A stretch of 64,000 nt of DNA. Origin: Zootoca vivipara (lineage: Eukaryota). Positions 1,502 to 47,140 of the stretch are shown here, piece by piece (position 1 is the stretch's first letter; each line of letters opens with the position of its first letter). The stretch spans positions 10,602,001-10,666,000 of the forward strand of contig NC_083284.1 in assembly GCF_963506605.1 (NCBI RefSeq), given 5' to 3'. Below the pieces are notes generated by a model. The model saw nothing but the letters and a program-made list of their open reading frames with translations. It was not told the DNA's origin and ran no database searches. Both the position numbers and the translations under genes were made by a program.

Positions 1502-1510
1502 ACAATCCAT
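1502..1510 (-). CDS. First coding exon (MDC) of a third galectin paralog continuing beyond the left edge
   Basis: ATGGATTGT|GTGAGT inside sequence paralogous to the exon 1/promoter blocks of copies A and B. The downstream exons are not in the window. Confidence 0.7.
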
Positions 1511-5949: not shown

Positions 5950-6768
5950 CTGCAAGGAGCAGAGAGGGAGCCATCAACACAGGACACTGAACAGTTTTTT
6001 AAATGACCTGGCAACATTTTAACTTCTTAAATTGGAACCATCTCCTTCGGGAGGTGGTGGACTCTCCTTCCTTGGAGGTTTTTAAGCAGAGGTTGGACGG
6101 CCATCTGTCATGCATGCTTTAAGTTAATGCATACAGACTGCGCATGTGCAGCATCCGGGGTGCCGCCCCCGTTACCAGCTGGGCTAGGTACACCCCTGTC
6201 TTGGGGTCCCTTTCAACTCTACAATTCTACGATTCTAAGGGAATGGCAGACACTGTTGTCAACAGTGCAAGCTAGTGTGGTGTAGTGGTTAAAAGCGGTA
6301 GACTTGTAATCTGGGGAACCGGGTTCGCGTCCCTGCTCCTCCACATGCAGCTGCTGGGTGACCTTGGGCTAGGCACACTTCTCTGAAGTCTCTCAGCCAG
6401 GTGTCTGTTGTGGGGGAGGAGGGGAAAGGAGATGGTTAGCCGCTTTGAGACTCCTTCGGGTAGTGATAAAGCGGGATATCAAATCCAAACTCTTCTTCTT
6501 CTCTTCTTCTTCTTCTTCTTCTTCTTCTTCTTCTTCTTCTTCTTCTTCTTCTTCTTCTTCTTCTTCTTCTTCTTCTTCTTCTTCTTCTAGCCATTCTGGG
6601 TTTCACTTTCCTGACAACAGCACCAAAGGCTGCTTTGACCCCCAAGGCCTTTCCACTGCTGATGAGTCTGTAGTACATCAAAGCCCAAGGACCAGAAGAG
6701 CAGCATTTTTATGCCTATCCGCATACCGTAGAGCCACTCATACCAAAAGTGTGTCCACCTGACTTGCA

Positions 6769-6802
<34 letters not shown>

Positions 6803-9482
6803 GTGCATAAGCATTGTAATAAAAAACACATGGAATTCATAAACATCCACAAAACAAAGGCAACGATCATTTCATTTGTGTGCCCTTGTAATTAAAAACG
6901 GGACACAATTGTTGTTCAGACAGGCCAGGTCCCCCAACACTGGCATTCCAGTTGTTCTGCACATATAAAAGGAACCCTCCTATGAAACATGGAGGCGTCC
7001 CACTTTCCCATGTGCCAGGGAAAGTAAACTTGTCCCCCCTCCAGATGTTGTTGGCCTGTTGGTTCCATCATGCCTCACCATCAGCCATGCTAGCCGAGGC
7101 TGATGGGATTATAATGTCATCTGGAAGGCTACAAATGCTTCTCCCTCGGAACAGGGAACTCCAGGAGAAGCTGCCTGCCTGCCTCCATTTGATCTACTGC
7201 TCAGACCTCACCTGAACTCTGCCGCCTTGCTGAAAAGGGAACTTGGAGATGCTCTCCTCCTCTTTCCCCCACACCCCATTTTCCTTGGAGTTGCACACAA
7301 TGGTGTTCGGACACTTCTGGCGGTGAAAGCGCGGATTGAAGTAAAGAACGAGGTTATCAGGGTCTTGGCCCAGTTTCACAACAAATCTTGAAGAGGTTTG
7401 AAAGTTATGAAAGAAACAAGAATAACAAACGTGAGAGGCTTACTGGACTTCAGCTGCAACAACAACAGGGCCCCTCTCCTAGGGGTTCACATGCTTGCCA
7501 TGCCGTAAGAATATTGAGAACATTCTTACATGCCACTTCAATCTCTGACGGGTGTGAGACTCCAGGGGTTTCAAGCGCTTACCAAGGGTTCGCGTTTCCT
7601 TCAGAATGAGGTGCAGCAGAGACTGAGGTTCACAGCATTAACACCCCCTTTGCTTCCCCCTTAGATGCAGCCTTGGATTCAAGCAGAAATCAGGCATGGC
7701 TCTGGCTTCCCTGGCTTCCCAGCTTCTAGCTTCTAGGTCACATAACTCAACTCTCTCTCCCAGTCTTTGTCTTTGTAACTACCAGTGAGTTGAGTGGGGG
7801 GGGGGGAGCACCCATTTGACCTCTGGCACTGAGCCACTTCCTTTGCTACCTGAATGACCCATACTTTGGGCCATTAGGAATAAGCAGGAATCTCGCCTGG
7901 CTAGTCTAGGAATTGTATCCATGCTGGATCCAAGAAGTGGAACGCCCTCCCATCAGATGTCAAAGAGAAAAACAGCTACCAGATTTTTAGAAGACATCTG
8001 AAGGCAGCCCTGTTTAGGGAGGCTTTTAATGTTTAATAGATTATTTTATTTCATTTCTCTGTTGGAAGCCACCCAGAGTGGCTGGGGTATAAATAATATA
8101 TTATTATTATTATTATTATTAATTATTATTATTATTATTAGGGGACCCAGGCATATAGCCTAAAAAACCCACCTCAAATTCATATATTGTGCTGGATTTG
8201 GGCTTCATGAAAACACTTTAAAAATTAAAAATAAAGCAAGGTTGTAGTCCTCATGGTTGCAGAGATTCAGGAATTATCTACCTGGAGCTTGATATAGACC
8301 AATGATGTCTATATCAAGGATGGAGCCCAAGATCTGCATAATGTGTCTGCCAATCCCTGTGACTCTTAAATTACTTAACTCACAACAATATCCCACATTC
8401 CCCATTACGTAATTTACAACAGCCTTGTAAGGAAGGCCAACATCCCCCTGCTGAAGATGAGGGGGCTACGGGAAGGCAACTTGGTTCATGGGACCAAGTA
8501 AGATACTGTATGCAGGTTCTAGACAAGGATGCTATAGGAAAGGCATCTTCAAATGTTTTGAAGGGCTTGCCATACTGATGGAGCAAGTTTATTTTGTTGC
8601 TGGCTACTGCATTCCGTAACCTGGTACCCTCCAGATGTTTTGGAAACTCCCTTCGGCCCCAGCCAGCTGGTAGGAACAAAGCCAAGGAAGAGGATTTCAC
8701 CTACACATTAGCACAGGGGGTGGGGCACCTGTTTAAGCCCAGTGGGGAGGTGCTTTGCATTCCTTTCTAGGTAACATGGCAGTCGCAAGCAGTGCCAGAG
8801 GCAGAAGAGGGTAGGCAAATACATTTTACTTTTGTACAATAGGGCATTTTCTCCATACACAGCCCTCTTGCAATCTCTCTCCTAATTTACTCTCCATTTT
8901 AAGGGTGTGGGCTGTAGTAGGAAATCAGGTAAAAAAAATGAGAGGATCTGTGTCCTACATCCTGCCTTGTTTAGAACATGATTCGCCCTTCCATGCCCTA
9001 TTTTAATAAATCCGGTGCTTCGGCATTCAGCTTAAGATCTTGGTACAGGTTTTAATTGCTATGTCCTGGACGCATGACCTGGGCAGAGCTTGCCCGGCAT
9101 ACGCAAGAGATTCTCCGTTCTCAGAAACACGTTTAAGGGCTATGTACACAGTGTGCCTACACCCGAGTTCCCGGAGACATGTGATATTCCCCCCCTTCCC
9201 TACTCACTCTTTGGCATCTGGCAGGATCCTCCCTTTCACCTGGACCATGTCTCCATGCAGGGCTTGGAAATCAGTGGCAACCACTCCCTAGGGGAAGGGG
9301 AAACAAGAGACATTTTTTCAGCCGCAGTGTTGGCAGGATGAGATTCAGGAGGGGAAGGGGAAGGGAAATTAATGTGCTTACCGTTTTTGTCCTGGAAATA
9401 AGGTGAGCCCAGGGACCACTGAGCAGACTTGGCGGTTTCTGCAAAAGGAGGACAGAGGGAAGCCGTCGACAGAGACAGACAC

Positions 9483-9543
<61 letters not shown>

Positions 9544-10593
9544 GACAGACAAGAGCACAGATAACATTGGTTAGTGCAGTGCTAGGGAACCTGTGCAGCA
9601 ATTTCAACACTCAGGTTAATAGAATGAGCTGCTTCCAGGAACTCTGCTTTAGGGCAGCCTACAAATACAGTGGTGCCTCGCAAGACGAATTTAATTCGTT
9701 CCGCGAGTCAATTCGTTTTGCAAAAAAATCCGTCTTGCGAATCGCGGTTACCCATAGGAATGCATTGAAAGTTCTTTTTTTGCCCATAGGAACACATTAA
9801 TTAAATTTCAATGCAATCCTATGGGACACCGTGATTCGCCAGACGAATTTTTCGCAAAACGAATTCGTCTTGCGAGTCACCATCAGATCGCAAGACGCAT
9901 TCGTCTTGCAAAAAAATCGTCTTGCAGGGCATTCGTCTTGCGAGGTACCACCATACTGTAAGTGAACCATAGAATAGATGACTTAGCCACATTCACTCAA
10001 ATACAGATGTTTTCAAGCCCTTCTCAGATCCCACATTTTCCTGCTAGGTCCTTTATTTATATAATTTCTATCTTGCCCCAGTGAGCAGCTGACCTCCTGC
10101 ATTTTGCAGTAGCTGCTGCTTCTGGACCTACCTTAGAAGCAGTATAATGAAATTTGGAACATATTCACAAACATATGGTTATAAATAACCCTACATGTAT
10201 TTGGATAACAACGACATTTATATGCCTGTATTCTAGAGAAGCACTTGTGGAATTGTAGTTGATTGCATACATAGTGATATAATACACCTTCTTTTTCTCT
10301 TTATGACTTTTTATTTTTACTTTATTTTGCTCAATTGAAATGCTCTCGATACAAAATTAAAATAAAAGAACCCAGAAGCAGCAAGAGAAACAGAGGCAAG
10401 AAGTCAGAGATACTGTATAAGAGTTAGCAGCTGAGATACAATCATGCTCCTCCCTAGAGAGAACAAGCCTCCTATTAACCCTTCTAATTTTCCAGCCTAG
10501 TTTTATTGCACTTGGTGGTATTACAGCTTCAATAGCAACTGCCTCCTATACTAACAACCACAAAAATGGACATACAAGACTCACGGACTGCAT
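5797..10593 (-). CDS. Galectin-1-like (16 kDa beta-galactoside-binding lectin/CG-16-like) copy A, 5 exons, 157 aa predicted
   Basis: Manual splice join(10593..10585, 9438..9382, 9287..9208, 7386..7212, 5949..5797), all GT-AG and in frame: MQS|KPPSLLSGPWAHLISRTKT|GVVATDFQALHGDMVQVKGRILPDAKE|FVVKLGQDPDNLVLYFNPRFHRQKCPNTIVCNSKENGVWGKEEESISKFPFQQGGRVQ|LSFTFLNSEIKVLLDDDHEISFPNRLGLRVLEYIAVEGGFRIRGLKFFGS*. Galectin motifs FNPRF, IVCNS, WGxE, FPF, FPNRLG are present, and intron phases match galectin-1. Confidence 0.9.
6268..6588 (+). mobile_element. tRNA-derived squamate SINE (Squam3-like) with (CTT)n tail
   Basis: TGGTGTAGTGGTT/GGTTCG boxes and a long TTC tail at 6491-6588. Confidence 0.75.
7212..7386 (-). 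CDS. Galectin copy A CRD core exon (175 nt)
   Basis: ttcaag|ATTT...GTTCAG|gtgag, encoding LYFNPRF, IVCNS, WGKE, FPFQQG. Confidence 0.93.
7935..8140 (+). mobile_element. L2 LINE 3' end
   Basis: TGGAACGCCCTCCC...GAAGACATCTGAAGGCAGCCCTG with (ATT)n tail. Same family at ~35160-35500 and ~48505-49170. Confidence 0.7.
9208..9287 (-). CDS. Galectin copy A 80-nt exon
   Basis: ttcccctag|GGAGTG...AAAGA|gtgagt, encoding GVVATDFQALHGDMVQVKGRILPDAK. Confidence 0.9.
9382..9438 (-). CDS. Galectin copy A extra 57-nt exon (KPPSLLSGPWAHLISRTKT)
   Basis: cctccttttgcag|AAA...ACG|gtaagc, phase 0-0, no stop. Same length and position as the exon in copy B. Confidence 0.7.
9468..9552. repeat. (AGAC)n microsatellite
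   Basis: Directly visible. Confidence 0.95.
9668..9958. mobile_element. Tc1/mariner-type MITE
   Basis: CAGTGGTGCCTCGC...GCGAGGTACCAC TIRs flanked by TA. Confidence 0.8.
10585..10593 (-). CDS. Galectin copy A exon 1 (MQS)
   Basis: ATGCAGTCC|GTGAGT. A 9-nt coding first exon as in galectin-1, paralogous to 1502-1510 and 24845-24853. Confidence 0.8.
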
Positions 10594-10664: not shown

Positions 10665-10810
10665 ACTTAAATAGCTGAGGCTTGTTTTCAAGGTCCTTTT
10701 AAACCGCATCACGTGATAAAAAGGGTTTGCAGTGAGTGGAGGGTCTGCTCCTCTCTCTAGCATTGCAAGGTGGAGAAAATCAGAGTCAATAGGCTAAACA
10801 GCTGGCCTGT
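10665..10810 (-). promoter_or_regulatory. Proximal promoter of galectin copy A
   Basis: TATTTAAG (~10666-10673), E-box CACGTG 10710-10715 and the shared AAAAAGGGT block. Confidence 0.55.
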
Positions 10811-19810: not shown

Positions 19811-19957
19811 CTAGAGAAATTTGAGGGTTCTGATTCTGAAGTCTCCTTCCACCCTGATATAGCCGATGGTCTTCAGGCCCAGCTGGTTGGGAAAGGTGAA
19901 CTCATGACCCTCTGCCAGCTTCACCTTGATCTCCGCAGAAAGAAAAGTGAAGGAAAG
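19811..19957 (-). CDS. Galectin copy B last exon
   Basis: ttcttgcag|CTTTCC..., encoding FPNQLG and VEGDF, ending in TAG. Confidence 0.92.
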   Translation of the reverse strand, partial: LSFTFLSAEIKVKLAEGHEFTFPNQLGLKTIGYIRVEGDFRIRTLKFL

Positions 19958-22900
19958 CTGCAAGAAGCAGGAGGAGGAGGAGTCATGAGAAAACCAGGAC
20001 ACTAAACGCTTTACATGCCCTGAAAGACTAAAAGGAATGGCAACTACTGCCTAGACATTGGGAGTTCAGCATTTCCATTTCCTGTCTGAGGCTACTTCTA
20101 CCCAAGTGCTTACATTTCAGCTGATCAGGAGGCACTTCAGAGCCAGGGGCGTAGCAAGGCGCCGCAACACCCGGGGCGGCATATTGCCATGTTCCGGGGG
20201 CGCGCGCAGCGTCGCTATGTAACGACACATGCTACTTCTAAACAGAGTGCCCAGGCTCCAGGTAGATAACCCACTGGCGTGGCACGCCCACCACACCAGT
20301 GGGCTATCTGCCTGGAGCCTGGGTGCTCCGTTTAGGCTCCATTTTGAAGTCACGGGGGTGCAGTACCCTCTCTGTTGTACGCATGCACAGCATCCCGCTG
20401 CACACGCATGCTAGGTAGAGGAGGATCGCGCGCCTCCCGCGACTTCTAAACAGAGCGCCCAGGCTCAGGCAAGGTGCCGATCCCGGGGTGGGGGCGCGGC
20501 CCCGAGTGACACCCCCTCCAGGGCAGTACCCAGGGTGGACCGCCCCCCCACCCGCTTGCCCCGCCCCTGTTCAGAGCCCAAGGACCAGAGTTGTCTTAAT
20601 CCATGGGTAGGCAAACTTAGGCCTGGGGGCAGGATCCAGCCCAATTGCCTTCTAAACCCAGCCCACAGATGGTCCGGGAATGAGCGTGTTTTTACATGAG
20701 TAGAATGTGTTCTTTTATCTAAAATGCATCTCTGGGTTATTTTGGGAGCACAGGAATTCGTTCATTTTCCCCCCAAAATATAGTCTGGCCCCCCACAAGG
20801 TCTGAGGGACAGTGGGCCGGCCCCCTGCTGAAAAAGTTTGCTGACCCCCTGGACTTAATCCCTCATGTTAAAAGCAGGATAAGATGCGGAGAAGGGTGTA
20901 CATGCTAGTTTTCTGTAGGCAAAGGTGAACTGGCCTGTGCACTTATTTTTTTTTTTTTAAAGCACAGAAGTCTTATTCAGTCAAGCCACTCTCCAAACAC
21001 CTGCATTCCAGTTCTATACATATAAATTTAATTTTTTTGAAAGAAGGAAGGTCCTCCTTCCACACCCTCTAAGGCAGCCATCCCCAAACTCAGCCCTCCA
21101 GATGTTTTGGGACTACAACTCCCATCTTCCCTGACCACTGGTCCTGTTAGCTAGGGATGATGGGAGTTGTAGTCCCAAAACATCTGGAGGGCCGAGTTTG
21201 GGGGTGCCTGCTCTAAGGGAAAGATACCTGGGGTCTTCCAGATGGTCAGGTATTGCTCCCATGGCTGACCATTGGCCATACTGGCTGGGGTCGATAGGAG
21301 TACAAGCATTGCATGACCTCTGCAGAGAAGCCACTCCCCTACCTCCTCCATTCGCACACAGACCTTCGATAAGACTGCCACACCCTCACCTGAACTTTGG
21401 CACCTTGCTCAAAAGGGAAATCGGTGATTCTCTGTTCTTTCCCCCATACGCCGTTCTGCAAGGAGTTGCACACGATGGTGTTCAAAATGGTGTTGTCGTC
21501 CGTCTGGTAGTCAAAGCGGGGGTTGAAGTGAAGGACGAGGTTGTCGCGATCCTGGCCCAGATTCACGACAAAACTTGAAGAGGATGGAAGTTATGGAAAA
21601 CAAAGAGCGTGGAGGTTAAGGCTTCCTGGACCTCTGTATAAACAAACAACAACTACGCAGCCCCCCTCTTGGGCATCTACCTGTATGCCAAACAGTGAGA
21701 GCATTTAGTGCTATATTTGGGCTTCATCATCATCATCAATTATTTATACCCCGCCCATCTGGCTGGGTTTCCCCAGCCACTCTGGGCGGCTTCCAACAAA
21801 ATATTAAAATACAATAATGTATTAAACATTAAAAGCTTCCCTAAACAGGGCTGCCTTCATGAGAACAGTAGCTTTAAAAATAAATAAAATAATAAAATTA
21901 AAATAAAGCACGGTTCTAGCGCTCATGGTTGCAAGAGTATCACACGGGAACTAGCAACCTAGAGCAGCATATAGACCAGGGTTTCCCAAACTTGCGTCTC
22001 CAGCTGTTTTTGGACTACAGTTATCATCCATGACCATAGGGTCCTGCTAGTTAGGGACGATGGGAGTTGTAGTCCAAAAACAGCTGGAGACCCAAATTTT
22101 GGAAACCATGATATAGACCAGGCATGTCAAACCTGCGGCCCTCCAGATGTTTTGGACTACAATTCCCATCTTCCCCAACCACTGGTCCTGCTAGCTAGGG
22201 ATCATGGGAGTTGTAGGCCAAAACATCTGGAGGGCTGCAGGTTTGACATGCCTGATATAGACTGTTGGGGGGGCAGGATGTACCCCAACATTTCCCCTTC
22301 CCCCCATGGGTCATTTGAGAATCACCGCAGGTCCACATAGAGAACTTGGTGATTTTCCTCTGCCTGTTGTACTGCAACAGGTGCTGTAGGATTTTGAATT
22401 ACGTTTTTACAGACAGGCTATAGGCCAACCGAATGAAGCTCACAGATCAGAGTTTGGAGAGCCCTGTCGTGCAACAGGAGTCACAAAGTGTGCAACATAG
22501 GATTCTCCACACTCCATCCTAGCTAGCATGAAAAATTAAGAGTTCAATGGAACATTCCAACCAGGCAAGAACACTCTGCAGGCATCAGGGCCAGTGAGGG
22601 ATTCAGCCTGGGGAGAGGGCCAAGGGCCAAAGAACGGTGTGGAGGGCCACTTCTCATCCTCACCCCCGCATTAGCAAAACTATCCAAGGCTGCATTTGCG
22701 CTCCTGTCGACTCCTGCTGGAGCTTTAAATCTGCATCCGCATGATGTCATCTAGAGTAACTGCATTATTTTGAGAACCAGTGGGGAGTAGTGGTTAGAGC
22801 GCTGGACTTGCACCTCGGAGACCCAGGTTCAAATCCCTGCTCAGCTATGAAACTCTATGGGGCATCCCCCCTCCCCCGCTGTCACTCAGCCTAACCTACC

Positions 22901-24853
22901 TTGCAGGGTTGTTGGAAGGATAAAAAATGGGTGGTTGTTTTTTTTTAAAAAAATTCCTTCCAGTAGCACCTTAAAGGTAAAGGTAAAGGGACCCCTGACC
23001 ATTACGTCCAGTCGTGACCGACTCTGGGGTTGCACGCTCATCTCGCATTATTAGCAGAGGGAGCCGGCGTACAGCTTCCAGGTCATGTGGCCAGCATGAC
23101 AAAGCCGCTTCTGACAAACCAGAGCAGCGCATGGAAACGCCGTTTACCTTCCCACTGTAGCGGTTCCTATTTATCTACTTGCATTTTGACATGCTTTCGA
23201 ACTGCTAGGTTGGCAGGAGCTGGGACCAAGCAATGGGAGCTCACCCCGTCACAGGGATTCAAACCGTTGACCTTCTGATCAGCAAGCCCTAGGCTCAGTG
23301 GTTTAACCCACAGCGCCACCTGGGTCCCCCCAGTAGCACCTTAGAGACCAACTAAGTTTGTCATTGGTATGAGGTTTCGTGTGCATGCCTCGTGTGTGTA
23401 TCTGAAGAAGTGTGCATGCACACGAAAGCTCATACCAATGACAAACTTAGTTGGTCTCTAAGGTGCTACTGGAAGGAATTTTTTTATTTTGTTTCGACTA
23501 CGGCAGACCAACACGGCTACCTACCTGTAACTAAAATGGGGAAAGTGTGCATGCCACCTTTCACTCTCTGGAGGAAAGGTGGGATAGAAATATAATAAAT
23601 TACAAACGGGTATCCTGTGTAACAGGCAACAGTTTGGTGCAGTTTTATAAAGACTGGAGTCCTTAAGGTGTTCCCAACTCATCTCTAGCCAAGCTACGAA
23701 CACCTTTGCATAGGAATTAGACATTTCTGCCCCATAAGTGCTCTCTGGTGTGTATACTAACTAACTGAAGCCATGCGGAAATGAACAGCTTCGGGGCCAA
23801 GCTGGGGAGATAGCAACTTCTCTGTACTCCAAAGCAGTAATATGAATGCACAAGAGTCTCAATACGCTTTCCTCCTTCCCAGCTTACTCTTTGGCATCCG
23901 ACGGGATCCTCCCTTTCAGTTGGACAGTCTCTCCATGCAGAAGGAGAAAATCCGTCGCAACCAGCCCCTAGAGAGGAGGGAAACACATCTTCAACTGCGG
24001 TGGTGGAATGGTGAGATTTAGGAGGGAAAGGGGCAAGAAAGTGAATGCTCTTACTTTCATTGGGTTGGAGTGAACCCGGGTCCATGGATCAATGAGGGCA
24101 CTTCCTAATACCTGTGGGACGGGACAAGAGGAAGGAGTCACCAATAAATCAATAGGCAGAAGCACTGAGCATTTCATTTGCTACAGCCAGTGTTGGGAAT
24201 CCAAGGGTTGTCAGATCTTTAGGACTAGCAGCCTGCTAGTCCCATATAGCAAGCAATTACTTCTCCCTCCTGCCATGTTATTCCCAGTAGCAACCTCCAA
24301 TTAAAAGTGCTGCATTCACTGACTCTTATAGGGAAGCCTAAAGACACTGCAAATAAATCGTTGTTGTTGTTTGCATACTCATGTTTCCAAGCCCTCTTCA
24401 AATCTTGCCTTTTCTGTGAAACCTCAACACCCATCCCTTCTACAAAGACTTTTTGAGTATGAACTGCATTGGCACACATTCGCCTCTTAAGTTACATTAC
24501 ACTCATCTCTCCCACGGGCAGACCTTTGATTGTAAGCTCTGCAGGGCAGAGACCATTCCCTCCCACCTTTATACTAGAAAGCACAACTGTATGGATAGCA
24601 CATCATTATTAACAGAGGACAGCCCTACTAACAATGCACCAAGAATAGGTTATCAAGAACCCCAAAGCAAGGGAAAGATAGAATGCAATAGTGACACATA
24701 CAAAATGTGCTTGTTTCCTAGCTGATACACCGCTTCCCCAAGAAACCTATTGATGCTTATAAGTTTCCGGCCTTGTTTAGGTCTTGCTGCTTGTAAAACA
24801 ATCTCAATCTCAGTAACCAAGGAGCAGCAATAAAGAGGACTCACGGGATCCAT
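19811..24853 (-). CDS. Galectin-1-like (16 kDa beta-galactoside-binding lectin/CG-16-like) copy B, 5 exons, 158 aa predicted
   Basis: join(24853..24845, 24111..24055, 23967..23888, 21573..21390, 19957..19811): MDP|VLGSALIDPWTRVHSNPMK|GLVATDFLLLHGETVQLKGRIPSDAKD|FVVNLGQDRDNLVLHFNPRFDYQTDDNTILNTIVCNSLQNGVWGKEQRITDFPFEQGAKVQ|LSFTFLSAEIKVKLAEGHEFTFPNQLGLKTIGYIRVEGDFRIRTLKFL*. Carries the full HxNxR...N...WGxExR signature. Confidence 0.92.
20144..20569. mobile_element. hAT-type MITE in copy B last intron
   Basis: CAGGGGCG...CGCCCCTG TIR with TSD TTCAGAGC. Confidence 0.8.
21390..21573 (-). CDS. Galectin copy B CRD core exon (184 nt)
   Basis: ttcaag|TTTT...GTTCAG|gtgag, encoding LHFNPRF, IVCNS, WGKEQR, FPF. 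Confidence 0.94.
21977..22254. mobile_element. Two tandem hAT MITEs sharing one target site
   Basis: ATATAGAC at 21969, 22111 and 22255. Confidence 0.85.
22974..23328 (-). mobile_element. Sauria SINE inserted in a Penelope terminal repeat
   Basis: Sauria consensus, (ACCTTT)n tail and TSD CCAGTAGCACCTTA. Confidence 0.9.
23329..23530 (+). mobile_element. Penelope-like element terminal inverted repeat
   Basis: Matches the Penelope 3' end at ~63470-63598, here arranged as a hairpin. Confidence 0.8.
23398..23435 (+). ncRNA. Minimal type I hammerhead ribozyme motif (Penelope-associated)
   Basis: GTAT-CTGAAGA-A-GTGTGCATGCACAC-GAAA-GCTC-ATAC. Confidence 0.65.
23888..23967 (-). CDS. Galectin copy B 80-nt exon
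   Basis: ctctctag|GGGCTG...AAAGA|gtaagc. Confidence 0.9.
24055..24111 (-). CDS. Galectin copy B extra 57-nt exon (VLGSALIDPWTRVHSNPMK)
   Basis: cttgtcccgtcccacag|GTA...ATGAAA|gtaaga, phase 0-0. Confidence 0.7.
24845..24853 (-). CDS. Galectin copy B exon 1 (MDP)
   Basis: gtcATGGATCCC|GTGAGT. Confidence 0.8.
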
Positions 24854-44784: not shown

Positions 44785-46821
44785 TCAGTCGCTGTATTCC
44801 TCCTCCCTCTCCTGCAGCAGGTGGAACCTGCTCCCCATTTTCCACTTGATATGCTGAGGTTTCAAGTACGCTGCCAAGGAAGTCTTCCTGCTGACTTTCC
44901 TGCCCAGCTCTGGGCTCTTGCCCTTTTTTGCACCGAGCGAGGTGAAGCTCCTGGCTATGGGGTGGGCCGGGAAGATGGTCTTGCCCTGAGGAGCCTCCAG
45001 GAGCTGCCACACCTCCCCCGAGGTGGCGCTGCTCAGGTACTGCCAGGGCCTCTTGCCGCTGCTGTCGCGCACCTGCGTGCTGCACCGCAGCTTCTGCACC
45101 AGCAGCTTGACGACCAGCTGGTGGCCGTGCATGGCAGCCAGGTGCAGAGGGGTGTACCCGCAGCCGGACTTGGCGTCCACGTCAAGGTCCACGCCGGCTT
45201 TCCTGGCGCCGGCGACAAAGTCCTGCATCACTTGCACGTTCCCATGCTTGGCCAGCCAGTGGAGCACAGTGTAGCCCATGATGAAATCTTTGCGGGTGGC
45301 CAGGTGGGGGTCTTCCAGGAAGAGCGCCCTGGCCTGCATCCATGAACCGGTGGCTACTTTCACCAGCCAGGCATGCTCTCGGGGTTCCAAGGGCACAGAG
45401 GAAGACCTGCCTTCGCTCTGAGCATCCGCATCTGGGCCCAGCCCTTGCAGGTCAGGAGAAGTGGCTGAGCATCCTTGCCTCTGGACTAGGCGTGGGCTCA
45501 GGGGGGTCTCCAGGGGAGAGGGAGACAGCCTGGTCACTTTCCAGGGGTTGGGTGGCTCTTTGCCAGGTTTCTGGGAGTCTGCGTCCCACAGCTTGTCCCA
45601 GGAGGCAGCTCTGCTCACCACCCGGTTCAGCAAGGCGAGGTGATCTGGCAGGGCGCCATCCTTGGCCAAGTCATTTCCGTGGGGTCTGTAGCAGATGCTT
45701 TCTGGCGAGGCCCGGGTTGTCCCTGTTGAATTACCGCCGTGTCCGTTCTGCCTCGCAGGGAAGGGCTGGTGAAGGACGCCGGCGCGCCCTTCAGGCCGGT
45801 AGGAGTCGCTGCCTCCGCTGGCGCTGCTGCCGTCTTCGCTCGCCGAGCTCGCCTTCTCGATAAAGTCCTCCAGGTCCTGCAGGGAGAGCTGGCACCGGAT
45901 GCTCCGGAAGACGGGCGCAGGGTCCCGCCGGGCACCCAGCCCGGGCAAGGAATCCTGAGAAAGGCAGGCGCTCCGCACCGAGCTGGGGGGCGACGGCCGG
46001 GTTGGCCAGGAGGACCCTTCTTCACGCTGCAGAAGGGGGTCAGGCAGGGCGGACTGGTGCGTAACAGCATGCGCCCTCTCCACCCACTCGCGGATCCTTT
46101 GCTGGGGGCTGGCGGCACTTGGAGGCGCGACCATTTTCCCGACGGGTAAATAGGGGCCATTTGTCTGCGGCGCCCCGCCTAGCAGGAGCGGAGGGTCTCC
46201 CCGAAGAGCCTGACGGGGCTCCCTTTGGCTGTGCTGCTCCGTTCCAAGCAGGGCGCACGGCTCCGAGGGGCTTCTCCGGCCGCCTAGCGCGGTGTTTGGC
46301 GGAAACAGCGCCCCCGTTCGCCCTCCCAGCCCCCCCGGGGGGCACCTGCGAGGCTCCGGGAAAGTCCTGAGCTGGTGGGCCGAACCTGGGCCGGCGCGCT
46401 CCTCTTCCACCTGGCGCCGGGGAGGCTCCTCGCCGTGCGCCCTGCGCGCGCGCTGCGCCCCGGCCTGGCCCTGCAGCGCCCCCCGGCCGATTTCTACTTC
46501 CAGATGCGGTGGCGGCGGCTTGGCGGCTTGGCTGTGGGCGGCATCGTCGGCAGGTGCCCTGGGTTCCTCTCCCACCAGCTCTCGGTAGCGTTTCCTGAGC
46601 ACCACGTACTTGGCGGCGCCCGGCGGCTCGTCCTGCTTCACGGTGGCCACGGAGTTGACGAAGCCCTTGAAGAGCTCTCGGCGGCGCTGCAGCTGAGCCG
46701 GAGACGCGTCGGGGTCCCGCAAGAAGAGCCTGAAGTGGCTCAGCAAGGCGGCGTTGGCCACGGTCCCCCCGGCCTGGCAGAGGAAGTCCAGCACCTCGGC
46801 TTGGCTCAGCTCTTTGGCCAT
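44785..46821 (-). CDS. SOWAHB: Sosondowah ankyrin repeat domain family member B (ANKRD56), single exon, 678 aa
   Basis: The N-terminus MAKELSQAEVLDFLCQAGGTVANAALLSHF...RRELFKGFVNSVATV matches the recalled SOWAHB N-terminus. Has an internal PVFRSIRCQLSLQDLEDF motif and C-terminal ankyrin repeats (LHWLAKHG; GYTPLHLAAMHG). Intronless, as known for this family. Confidence 0.95.
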   Translation of the reverse strand: MAKELSQAEVLDFLCQAGGTVANAALLSHFRLFLRDPDASPAQLQRRRELFKGFVNSVATVKQDEPPGAAKYVVLRKRYRELVGEEPRAPADDAAHSQAAKPPPPHLEVEIGRGALQGQAGAQRARRAHGEEPPRRQVEEERAGPGSAHQLRTFPEPRRCPPGGLGGRTGALFPPNTALGGRRSPSEPCALLGTEQHSQREPRQALRGDPPLLLGGAPQTNGPYLPVGKMVAPPSAASPQQRIREWVERAHAVTHQSALPDPLLQREEGSSWPTRPSPPSSVRSACLSQDSLPGLGARRDPAPVFRSIRCQLSLQDLEDFIEKASSASEDGSSASGGSDSYRPEGRAGVLHQPFPARQNGHGGNSTGTTRASPESICYRPHGNDLAKDGALPDHLALLNRVVSRAASWDKLWDADSQKPGKEPPNPWKVTRLSPSPLETPLSPRLVQRQGCSATSPDLQGLGPDADAQSEGRSSSVPLEPREHAWLVKVATGSWMQARALFLEDPHLATRKDFIMGYTVLHWLAKHGNVQVMQDFVAGARKAGVDLDVDAKSGCGYTPLHLAAMHGHQLVVKLLVQKLRCSTQVRDSSGKRPWQYLSSATSGEVWQLLEAPQGKTIFPAHPIARSFTSLGAKKGKSPELGRKVSRKTSLAAYLKPQHIKWKMGSRFHLLQEREEEYSD

Positions 46822-47140
46822 GATGACCTCGAAATCCCGGGCGCACGGATCACCTCCGCGGGCCCAGCGCGCACGGCTCTCGCTGCTGCTGCTGCCGCTG
46901 CTTCCTCCTCCATCCGGCCATGCTCCACCTCGCCAAGCTTATCTCCTCCCCAGCCCCGCCGCGGCTCCGCACGCCCGAGGCATTCGGGAACAGAAACCGC
47001 CGCACACGCGCGCTCTCCCCGGGGCGGCGCCCAGGATGAAACTTCTTCCCGGAGTCAGTTTCACCTGGGCTCCGTAGCCCCGCCCACGTCCCCACCTCGT
47101 GGCTCCTCCCCTCCCGTGCCTTGGCCCCGCCCCTTCTGCT
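45700..47140. promoter_or_regulatory. CpG island / SOWAHB promoter with GC boxes
   Basis: Very high GC and CpG density over the 5' half of SOWAHB, with GGGCGGGG boxes (minus) near 47078 and 47125. Confidence 0.8.

Follow-up and report, generated by a model that had tools for sequence, protein, structure and literature searches.

An open galectin gene with an eroded sugar-binding site in a five-copy galectin-1A array of Zootoca vivipara

Copy A, one member of a galectin array of Zootoca vivipara, has an open frame and has lost three residues of the galectin sugar-binding network, namely His44, Asp54 and Arg73. We read it as a kept, folded, likely non-binding galectin that acts through protein contacts, and we give this reading a probability somewhat below one half (about 0.47). 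The window is the whole stretch of DNA analysed, with a length of 64,000 nucleotides; residue numbers are those of human galectin-1, as taken from the alignments.

The gene of copy A consists of five exons with four GT-AG introns and encodes a 157-aa product that is identical to the Z. vivipara RefSeq protein XP_034967857.2 (Table 1). No lesion breaking the frame or the splicing was found. The splice sites, promoter and poly(A) signal had been described as intact in an earlier note on this DNA, and all were located, the promoter as a putative TATTTAA element and the poly(A) signal as AATAAA. Over exon 4, 41 of 50 residues are identical to those of the P. lilfordi ortholog. Intron 3 carries a 33-unit TCT microsatellite (window 6491-6588).

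Table 1. Positions of galectin features and a flanking gene, numbered from the first letter of the window
Feature	Position	Strand	Basis or remark
Copy A, TATA-like TATTTAA (putative)	10667..10673	minus	Similar elements upstream of exon 1 in B and C
Copy A, exon 1 (ATG + 6 nt)	10585..10593	minus	Matches RefSeq model P0003; same form in 5/5 copies
Copy A, exon 1b (tail exon), 57 nt in frame	9382..9438	minus	Joined to exon 2 in a contig of run X17
Copy A, exon 2, 80 nt	9208..9287	minus	Joints in contigs of run X17
Copy A, exon 3, 175 nt	7212..7386	minus	Strands S3-F3 of the CRD; AG/GT ends
Copy A, Tyr codon TAC at the His44 position	7341..7343	minus	Codon map; motif LVLYFNPRF
Copy A, Cys codon TGT at the Asp54 position	7311..7313	minus	Codon map; L4 HRQKCP
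Copy A, EEES segment	7251..7262	minus	One codon longer; Glu71 present, Arg73 missing
Copy A, exon 4 and stop codon	5797..5949	minus	Open frame
Copy A, poly(A) signal AATAAA	5765..5770	minus	Sequence
Copy B	19811..24853	minus	Five exons, 158 aa, own 19-aa tail, 4-aa L4 insertion
Copy B, tail exon	24055..24111
Copy B, exon 3	21390..21573	minus	All seven signature residues
Copy C, exon 1	1502..1510	minus	Remainder of C, plus D and E, left of the window
Copy C, tail exon	about 1.2 kb left of the window
Ankyrin-repeat ORF	44788..46938	minus	Flanking marker of the sauropsid gal-1a locus

By a six-frame scan and the codon map, 7212-7386 coincides with a single exon of the minus strand, which contigs from runs X17 and X19 show joined to exon 2. 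The same scan and map bear out the LVLYFNPRF motif and the replacement of His44 by Tyr that had been claimed for copy A. The stretch from 7271 to 7233 reads WGKEEESISKFPF, which contains no Arg and is one residue longer than in every sibling; the absence of Arg73 and the gain of one residue had thus been read correctly. The cysteine in HRQKCP is likewise real, but it had been taken for an added residue; because L4 matches the canonical length found in copies C, D and E, Cys54 is a substitution of Asp54. Asn46, Arg48, Asn61, Trp68 and Glu71 are still present, so that copy A has five of the seven signature residues (H44, N46, R48, N61, W68, E71 and R73) and the signature is broken, with Asp54 gone as well. 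Copy B, as had been stated, retains all seven. Judging from the codons of copies B and C, the EEES segment would likely have arisen by slippage or duplication of GAG together with an Arg-to-Ser change.

An error of the assembly or of its consensus, a caveat already attached to the original observation, has next to no probability as the source of these substitutions. No support for it was found: an earlier RefSeq version (P0001) has the same residues, and contigs of run X17 span all of exon 3 with no exon difference among those listed. It is ruled out because Cys54 and EEES are common to the lacertid ortholog models of L. agilis, P. muralis and P. lilfordi.

What the lost residues mean for sugar binding can be approached from other galectins. 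His44 bonds the O4 of galactose and Arg73 contacts GlcNAc (PMC3396283), while Arg48, Asp54, Glu71 and Arg73 form a salt-bridge network (PMC4422656). In the latter paper, the galectin-3 mutant hGal3-R186A, altered at the equivalent of Arg73, shows no measurable binding with its structure unchanged, and E165A, at the equivalent of Asp54, lowers binding 2.5-8.5-fold. Galectin-13, in which Arg takes the place of His44 and His that of Arg48, is described as not binding lactose (PMC5772480, PMC6294630) and as still agglutinating cells (PMC5772480). Our literature search found no galectin-1 point mutants. Because the Arg73-equivalent mutant of galectin-3 shows no measurable binding, loss of lactose binding in copy A is likely, and the suggestion to that effect in the earlier note finds support. 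In our judgement, which is not a computed result, copy A probably no longer binds lactose or LacNAc.

We consider it unlikely that copy A is still a lectin with a changed specificity, in which Tyr44 would act by stacking and the basic L4 would serve a charged or microbial glycan. The five remaining signature residues, including Arg48 and Trp68, would suit such a lectin, and Tyr44 recurs in 4 of the 120 homologs aligned (out of 123), including paralogs of alligator and Hemicordylus. Chicken GRIFIN is not known to have an equivalent of Arg73. It binds the blood-group B tetrasaccharide (PMC8699261), and a Xenopus prototype galectin with Lys in place of Arg73 has a distinct binding profile (PMC3396283). 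However, the orthologs of copy A disagree in the residues concerned, with Tyr44 and Arg48 in Zootoca, His44 and His48 in the three Podarcis rows, and His44 and Arg48 in L. agilis. These differences from lineage to lineage therefore argue against one selected new specificity, and drift fits them better.

The order of the losses can be read from the orthologs. In a tree of 32 rows, with tails removed, read-through ends trimmed and two frameshift-like P. muralis models omitted, the lacertid A sequences form one clade (support 100/100). Cys54 and EEES occur in all five lacertid A rows tabulated; since they are shared by all A rows, Asp54 and Arg73 were lost first, on the stem of this clade. Of the two features whose conservation in orthologs had been proposed as a check, EEES is indeed conserved in the lacertid models and Tyr44 is not. 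At exon 3 position 7343, runs X12 and X20 from other organisms have His44 and X13 is unchanged relative to Zootoca; in run X15, among the differences listed, the position is changed only in a second, more divergent contig. Per organism, the exon 3 differences listed comprise at least 3-6 nonsynonymous and at least 2-3 synonymous ones, too few for a ratio. The Rhineura model XP_061439331.1, which has Arg48->Cys, groups with B on the domain alone, weakly (83/76), and with A when the tails are included (61/27); because these groupings conflict, its substitution was excluded from the events of the A lineage.

Sequence and fold both identify copy A as a galectin CRD. The match to Pfam PF00337 has an E-value of 3.7e-28, and the best single-domain PDB match by sequence is 1qmj (E 9.8e-37), compared with E 3.2e-28 for 3dui. 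Copy A is nearer to CG-1A than to CG-1B, and exons 1-2 encode no Cys, hence it is without the Cys8 of Gal-1B. The structure predicted by AlphaFold2 from a 21-sequence alignment is an all-strand domain with a mean pLDDT of 79.1 and a pTM of 0.74, in which residues 1-21 have a pLDDT below 50 and residues 92-95 lie within a strand. A Foldseek search with this model returned human galectin-1 first (TM 0.84 by target) and chicken CG-16 second; copy A is thus predicted to keep the galectin fold. The dimer surface of galectin-1 is formed by the first and last strands. In copy A both strands align to those of galectin-1 without gaps, with the hydrophobic pattern kept.

It is possible, if doubtful, that copy A is instead a redundant duplicate in slow decay, in which selection lapsed after sugar binding was lost, the frame survives only for want of time and the few transcripts frequently keep intron 3. 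The loss of different site residues in different lineages would fit this, and expression is thin. Four runs of the own species were compared over 6810-9465, the span that holds exons 1b-3. Spliced copy A contigs occur in two of the four, X17 and X19, which are presumed to be RNA, at contig depths of 2.4-4.2; contigs of X17 join exons 1b, 2 and 3 (depth 4.2) and those of X19 join exons 2 and 3. The two raw RNA runs X21 and X22 (tissue unstated; about 6% of each, 7.5 million records each) both gave zero depth over exons 1b-3, which favours decay. So does the read-through of intron 3: contigs of X17 and of X20 (another organism) continue past the exon 3 donor, and a stop after five codons would give a 112-aa protein, as in the L. 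agilis model, which lacks exon 4. One P. muralis copy model also looks frameshifted. Against this, read-through models exist for paralogs with an intact site as well (P0081, P0082), the tail is conserved, and the P. lilfordi model has a complete domain. Over the span compared, which covers exons 1b-3, neither an exon 1-1b nor an exon 3-4 joint was seen, and the sole support here for a full-length copy A transcript is the RefSeq model. Among the differences listed, exon 3 of four other organisms contains no frameshifting indel while the flanking introns have about 10 indels, which again speaks against decay, with numbers too few for significance.

The rate of evolution bears on the same question. 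In a codon model on five paralogs (129 columns, terminal-branch dN/dS), the ratio of A is 0.72, or 0.60 in the free model, which cannot be told apart from 1 (2dL 0.52), as decay would have it. Among the siblings, B has 0.18 (2dL 20.5), C 1.03, D 0.63 (1.8) and E 0.29 (10.3). Copy D, like A, is without a signal of purifying selection despite its intact site. The A branch measures 0.46 substitutions per codon, which by our own arithmetic corresponds to about 0.15-0.2 neutral substitutions per site, and over such a long branch an open frame counts against decay: in simulations, the chance that a neutral frame stays intact is 0.001-0.005 at a distance of 0.15-0.2, without indels. At a distance of 0.05, for the time since the lacertid split, this chance is 0.04-0.19, which makes a weak test. 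The difference between A and its P. lilfordi ortholog (23/154, 14.9%) is also near that of B (18/145, 12.4%) and D (19/141, 13.5%), with E at 4/135 (3.0%), and this too weighs against decay. Because the frame outlasts the neutral expectation, relaxed constraint rather than free decay throughout is indicated. Our best reading is that copy A appears to be under relaxed constraint, and a recent release from constraint would also fit. The earlier view of copy A as an intact gene and not a pseudogene therefore stands as regards frame and splicing, while a decaying copy is only weakened, since a dN/dS not distinguishable from 1 and the thin expression are compatible with it. Neofunctionalisation, which had been proposed too, is not demonstrated, given a branch dN/dS that cannot be distinguished from 1.

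Erosion of this kind is not confined to copy A. A profile search gave 123 homologs, of which the 120 listed were aligned; the signature is kept whole in 101 of these and deviates in 19, with Arg73 missing in seven. Copy A is alone among these 120 of 123 in being without His44, Asp54 and Arg73 together, and, to judge by this survey, it stands at the extreme of a pattern of eroded duplicates that recurs in sauropsids. Galectin-1 paralogs of Hemicordylus capensis and Alligator sinensis (P0050, P0265, P0273, P0249, P0232 and P0274) have His44->Arg or His44->Tyr, some of them without Arg73. The model P0017 (CAI5784795.1, Podarcis lilfordi) fuses B to A in 299 aa, with one intact and one eroded site, and this two-domain fusion is probably an annotation artefact. 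To judge by models P0018-P0021, the B and A genes may be duplicated in Podarcis; in P. raffonei, B-like models lie on two different contigs.

Exon 1b would extend copy A at its N-terminus by 19 aa, a tail in which a PW motif is conserved. A 57-nt tail exon with intact ends is also found in copies B and C, and broken remnants of it are found in D (a stop and no donor) and E (no donor). The tail is present in models of four species, including L. agilis, P. lilfordi and Rhineura; three paralog models of this amphisbaenian carry a tail exon of the 57-nt type, and most tails have the PW motif. The tail of copy A is identical at 17/19 residues to that of P. lilfordi, at 17/19 to that of L. agilis and at 14/19 to that of a Rhineura paralog. 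Outside lacertids and Rhineura, no tail with the PW motif was found among 120 of the 123 homologs, and the genome holds no DNA match to the tail exon of copy A elsewhere, hence no donor was found. An older model of copy A begins at Met36. When copy A was considered as a short-tailed galectin, the exon 1b-2 joint was seen once. The PW-tail exon may be a more novel feature of this locus than the loss of the site in copy A.

A genome search returned 10 galectin matches, five of them inside one 50-kb stretch in the order B, A, C, D, E, and all five copies of this array have open frames. The signature is complete in copies B, D and E and broken in A and C; in C (equal to RefSeq model P0055), His44 is replaced by Arg and Asn61 by Met. 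Because the array has five copies, two of them eroded, a degenerate copy with a canonical sibling is too small a description, and the pairing of A with one such sibling given in the earlier note does not hold; nor is B a plain canonical partner, since it has an L4 insertion and a tail itself. Both changes of copy C recur in its L. agilis ortholog, and a likely P. lilfordi ortholog of C has His44, Arg48->Cys and Met61. The L4 insertion of copy B (window 21480-21500) resembles a short tandem duplication and is common to the lacertid B orthologs. An L4 insertion as long as that of B also occurs in a Rhineura paralog whose tail is of the A type, hinting at conversion or an ancestral insertion. The further galectin exon matches are L006 and L008 (on G000:C2, 13 kb apart), L007 (C10), L009 (C1) and L010 (C9).

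ORFs with SHROOM ASD1/ASD2 flank the array on the side opposite the ankyrin-repeat ORF, which is likely SOWAHB, a name taken from the synteny described in PMC4224342. The shroom3-sowahb locus is called gal-1a in that paper and LGALS1B in PMC10343441. By these flanks copy A lies at the locus of the sauropsid Gal-1A lineage, while its extra 57-nt exon and long branch depart from the conserved sequence and four-exon layout of that lineage; copy A is a descendant of Gal-1A. Four Gal-1 genes have been reported in anole, and Gal-1A has been described as the conserved one of the two sauropsid paralogs (PMC4224342). Our search found no literature on this array or its tail exon, the anole Gal-1 sequences in the supplements of PMC4224342 lying outside its range. 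PMC8143647, PMC12860763 and PMC8742010 mention galectins in ways that do not bear on copy A.

For copy A as a kept, non-binding galectin, we propose the following course of events. Asp54 and Arg73 were lost first, followed by lineage-specific losses (Tyr44 in Zootoca, His48 in Podarcis). Without the Arg48-Asp54-Glu71-Arg73 network and the bond of His44, the site could not hold a disaccharide. With binding lost, the rest of the site would have been free to drift, with the fold, frame and tail under weak selection. Copy A would then act as a sugar-independent partner through its 19-residue tail and a probably retained dimer surface. Through its terminal strands it would form homodimers, or heterodimers with canonical siblings, and such dimers would be unable to cross-link glycans. 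A more speculative extension, to which we give little credence, is that lacertids and amphisbaenians acquired a tailed galectin subfamily through the gain of a 57-nt exon, in which A and C are kept as sugar-blind partners of canonical galectin-1A, forming one-armed dimers that would brake glycan cross-linking, with the PW tail as a docking or sorting signal.

In this array, a conserved sauropsid Gal-1A (PMC4224342) is expanded to five copies, two without the sugar site and three with the tail exon, and the databases still name all copies beta-galactoside-binding lectins. If copy A is a kept non-binder, it would be a young and tractable counterpart of galectin-13 and GRP, with canonical siblings and graded orthologs, and would offer a way to study the sugar-independent roles of galectins and the purpose of N-terminal tails. 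If it is decaying, it would be a case of ordinary birth-and-death evolution.

The closest known system is the sauropsid galectin-1A itself (chicken CG-1A/CG-16, PDB 1qmj), which has the same locus and fold and of which copy E is the conventional form. Copy A differs from it in being without His44, Asp54 and Arg73, in one additional residue in S6, in a fifth exon with the 19-aa tail and in its place in a five-copy array, and it evolves much faster than E. The best functional analogue is human galectin-13 (placental protein 13). This prototype galectin from a tandem cluster is altered where galectin-1 has His44 and Arg48, and it fails to bind lactose (PMC5772480, PMC6294630). Similar changes are seen here in copy C (His44->Arg) and in the A copies of Podarcis (Arg48->His). 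Galectin-13, however, derives from the galectin-4 neighbourhood and has another exon layout (PMC10343441) whereas copy A comes from galectin-1, and its lack of binding is measured whereas that of copy A is predicted. Mammalian GRIFIN and GRP/LGALSL also combine a galectin fold with an eroded signature and are described as not binding carbohydrate (PMC3396283), and GRP has an N-terminal extension (PMC8699261), comparable to the predicted tail of copy A. They are ancient single genes at other loci (PMC10343441), in contrast to the young squamate duplicate described here. Copy A as an ortholog of GRIFIN, GRP or galectin-13 was rejected, as it lies at the gal-1a locus and those genes have other neighbours (PMC10343441); by analogy it probably works like galectin-13 or GRP, being an ortholog of neither. 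The N-tailed galectins, such as rat galectin-5 and GRP, have a single domain preceded by a short N-terminal extension whose function is not known (PMC8699261). Unlike these, copy A has its predicted tail in a separate 57-nt exon, also found in copies B and C and in Rhineura paralogs, and galectin-5, for its part, binds lactose.
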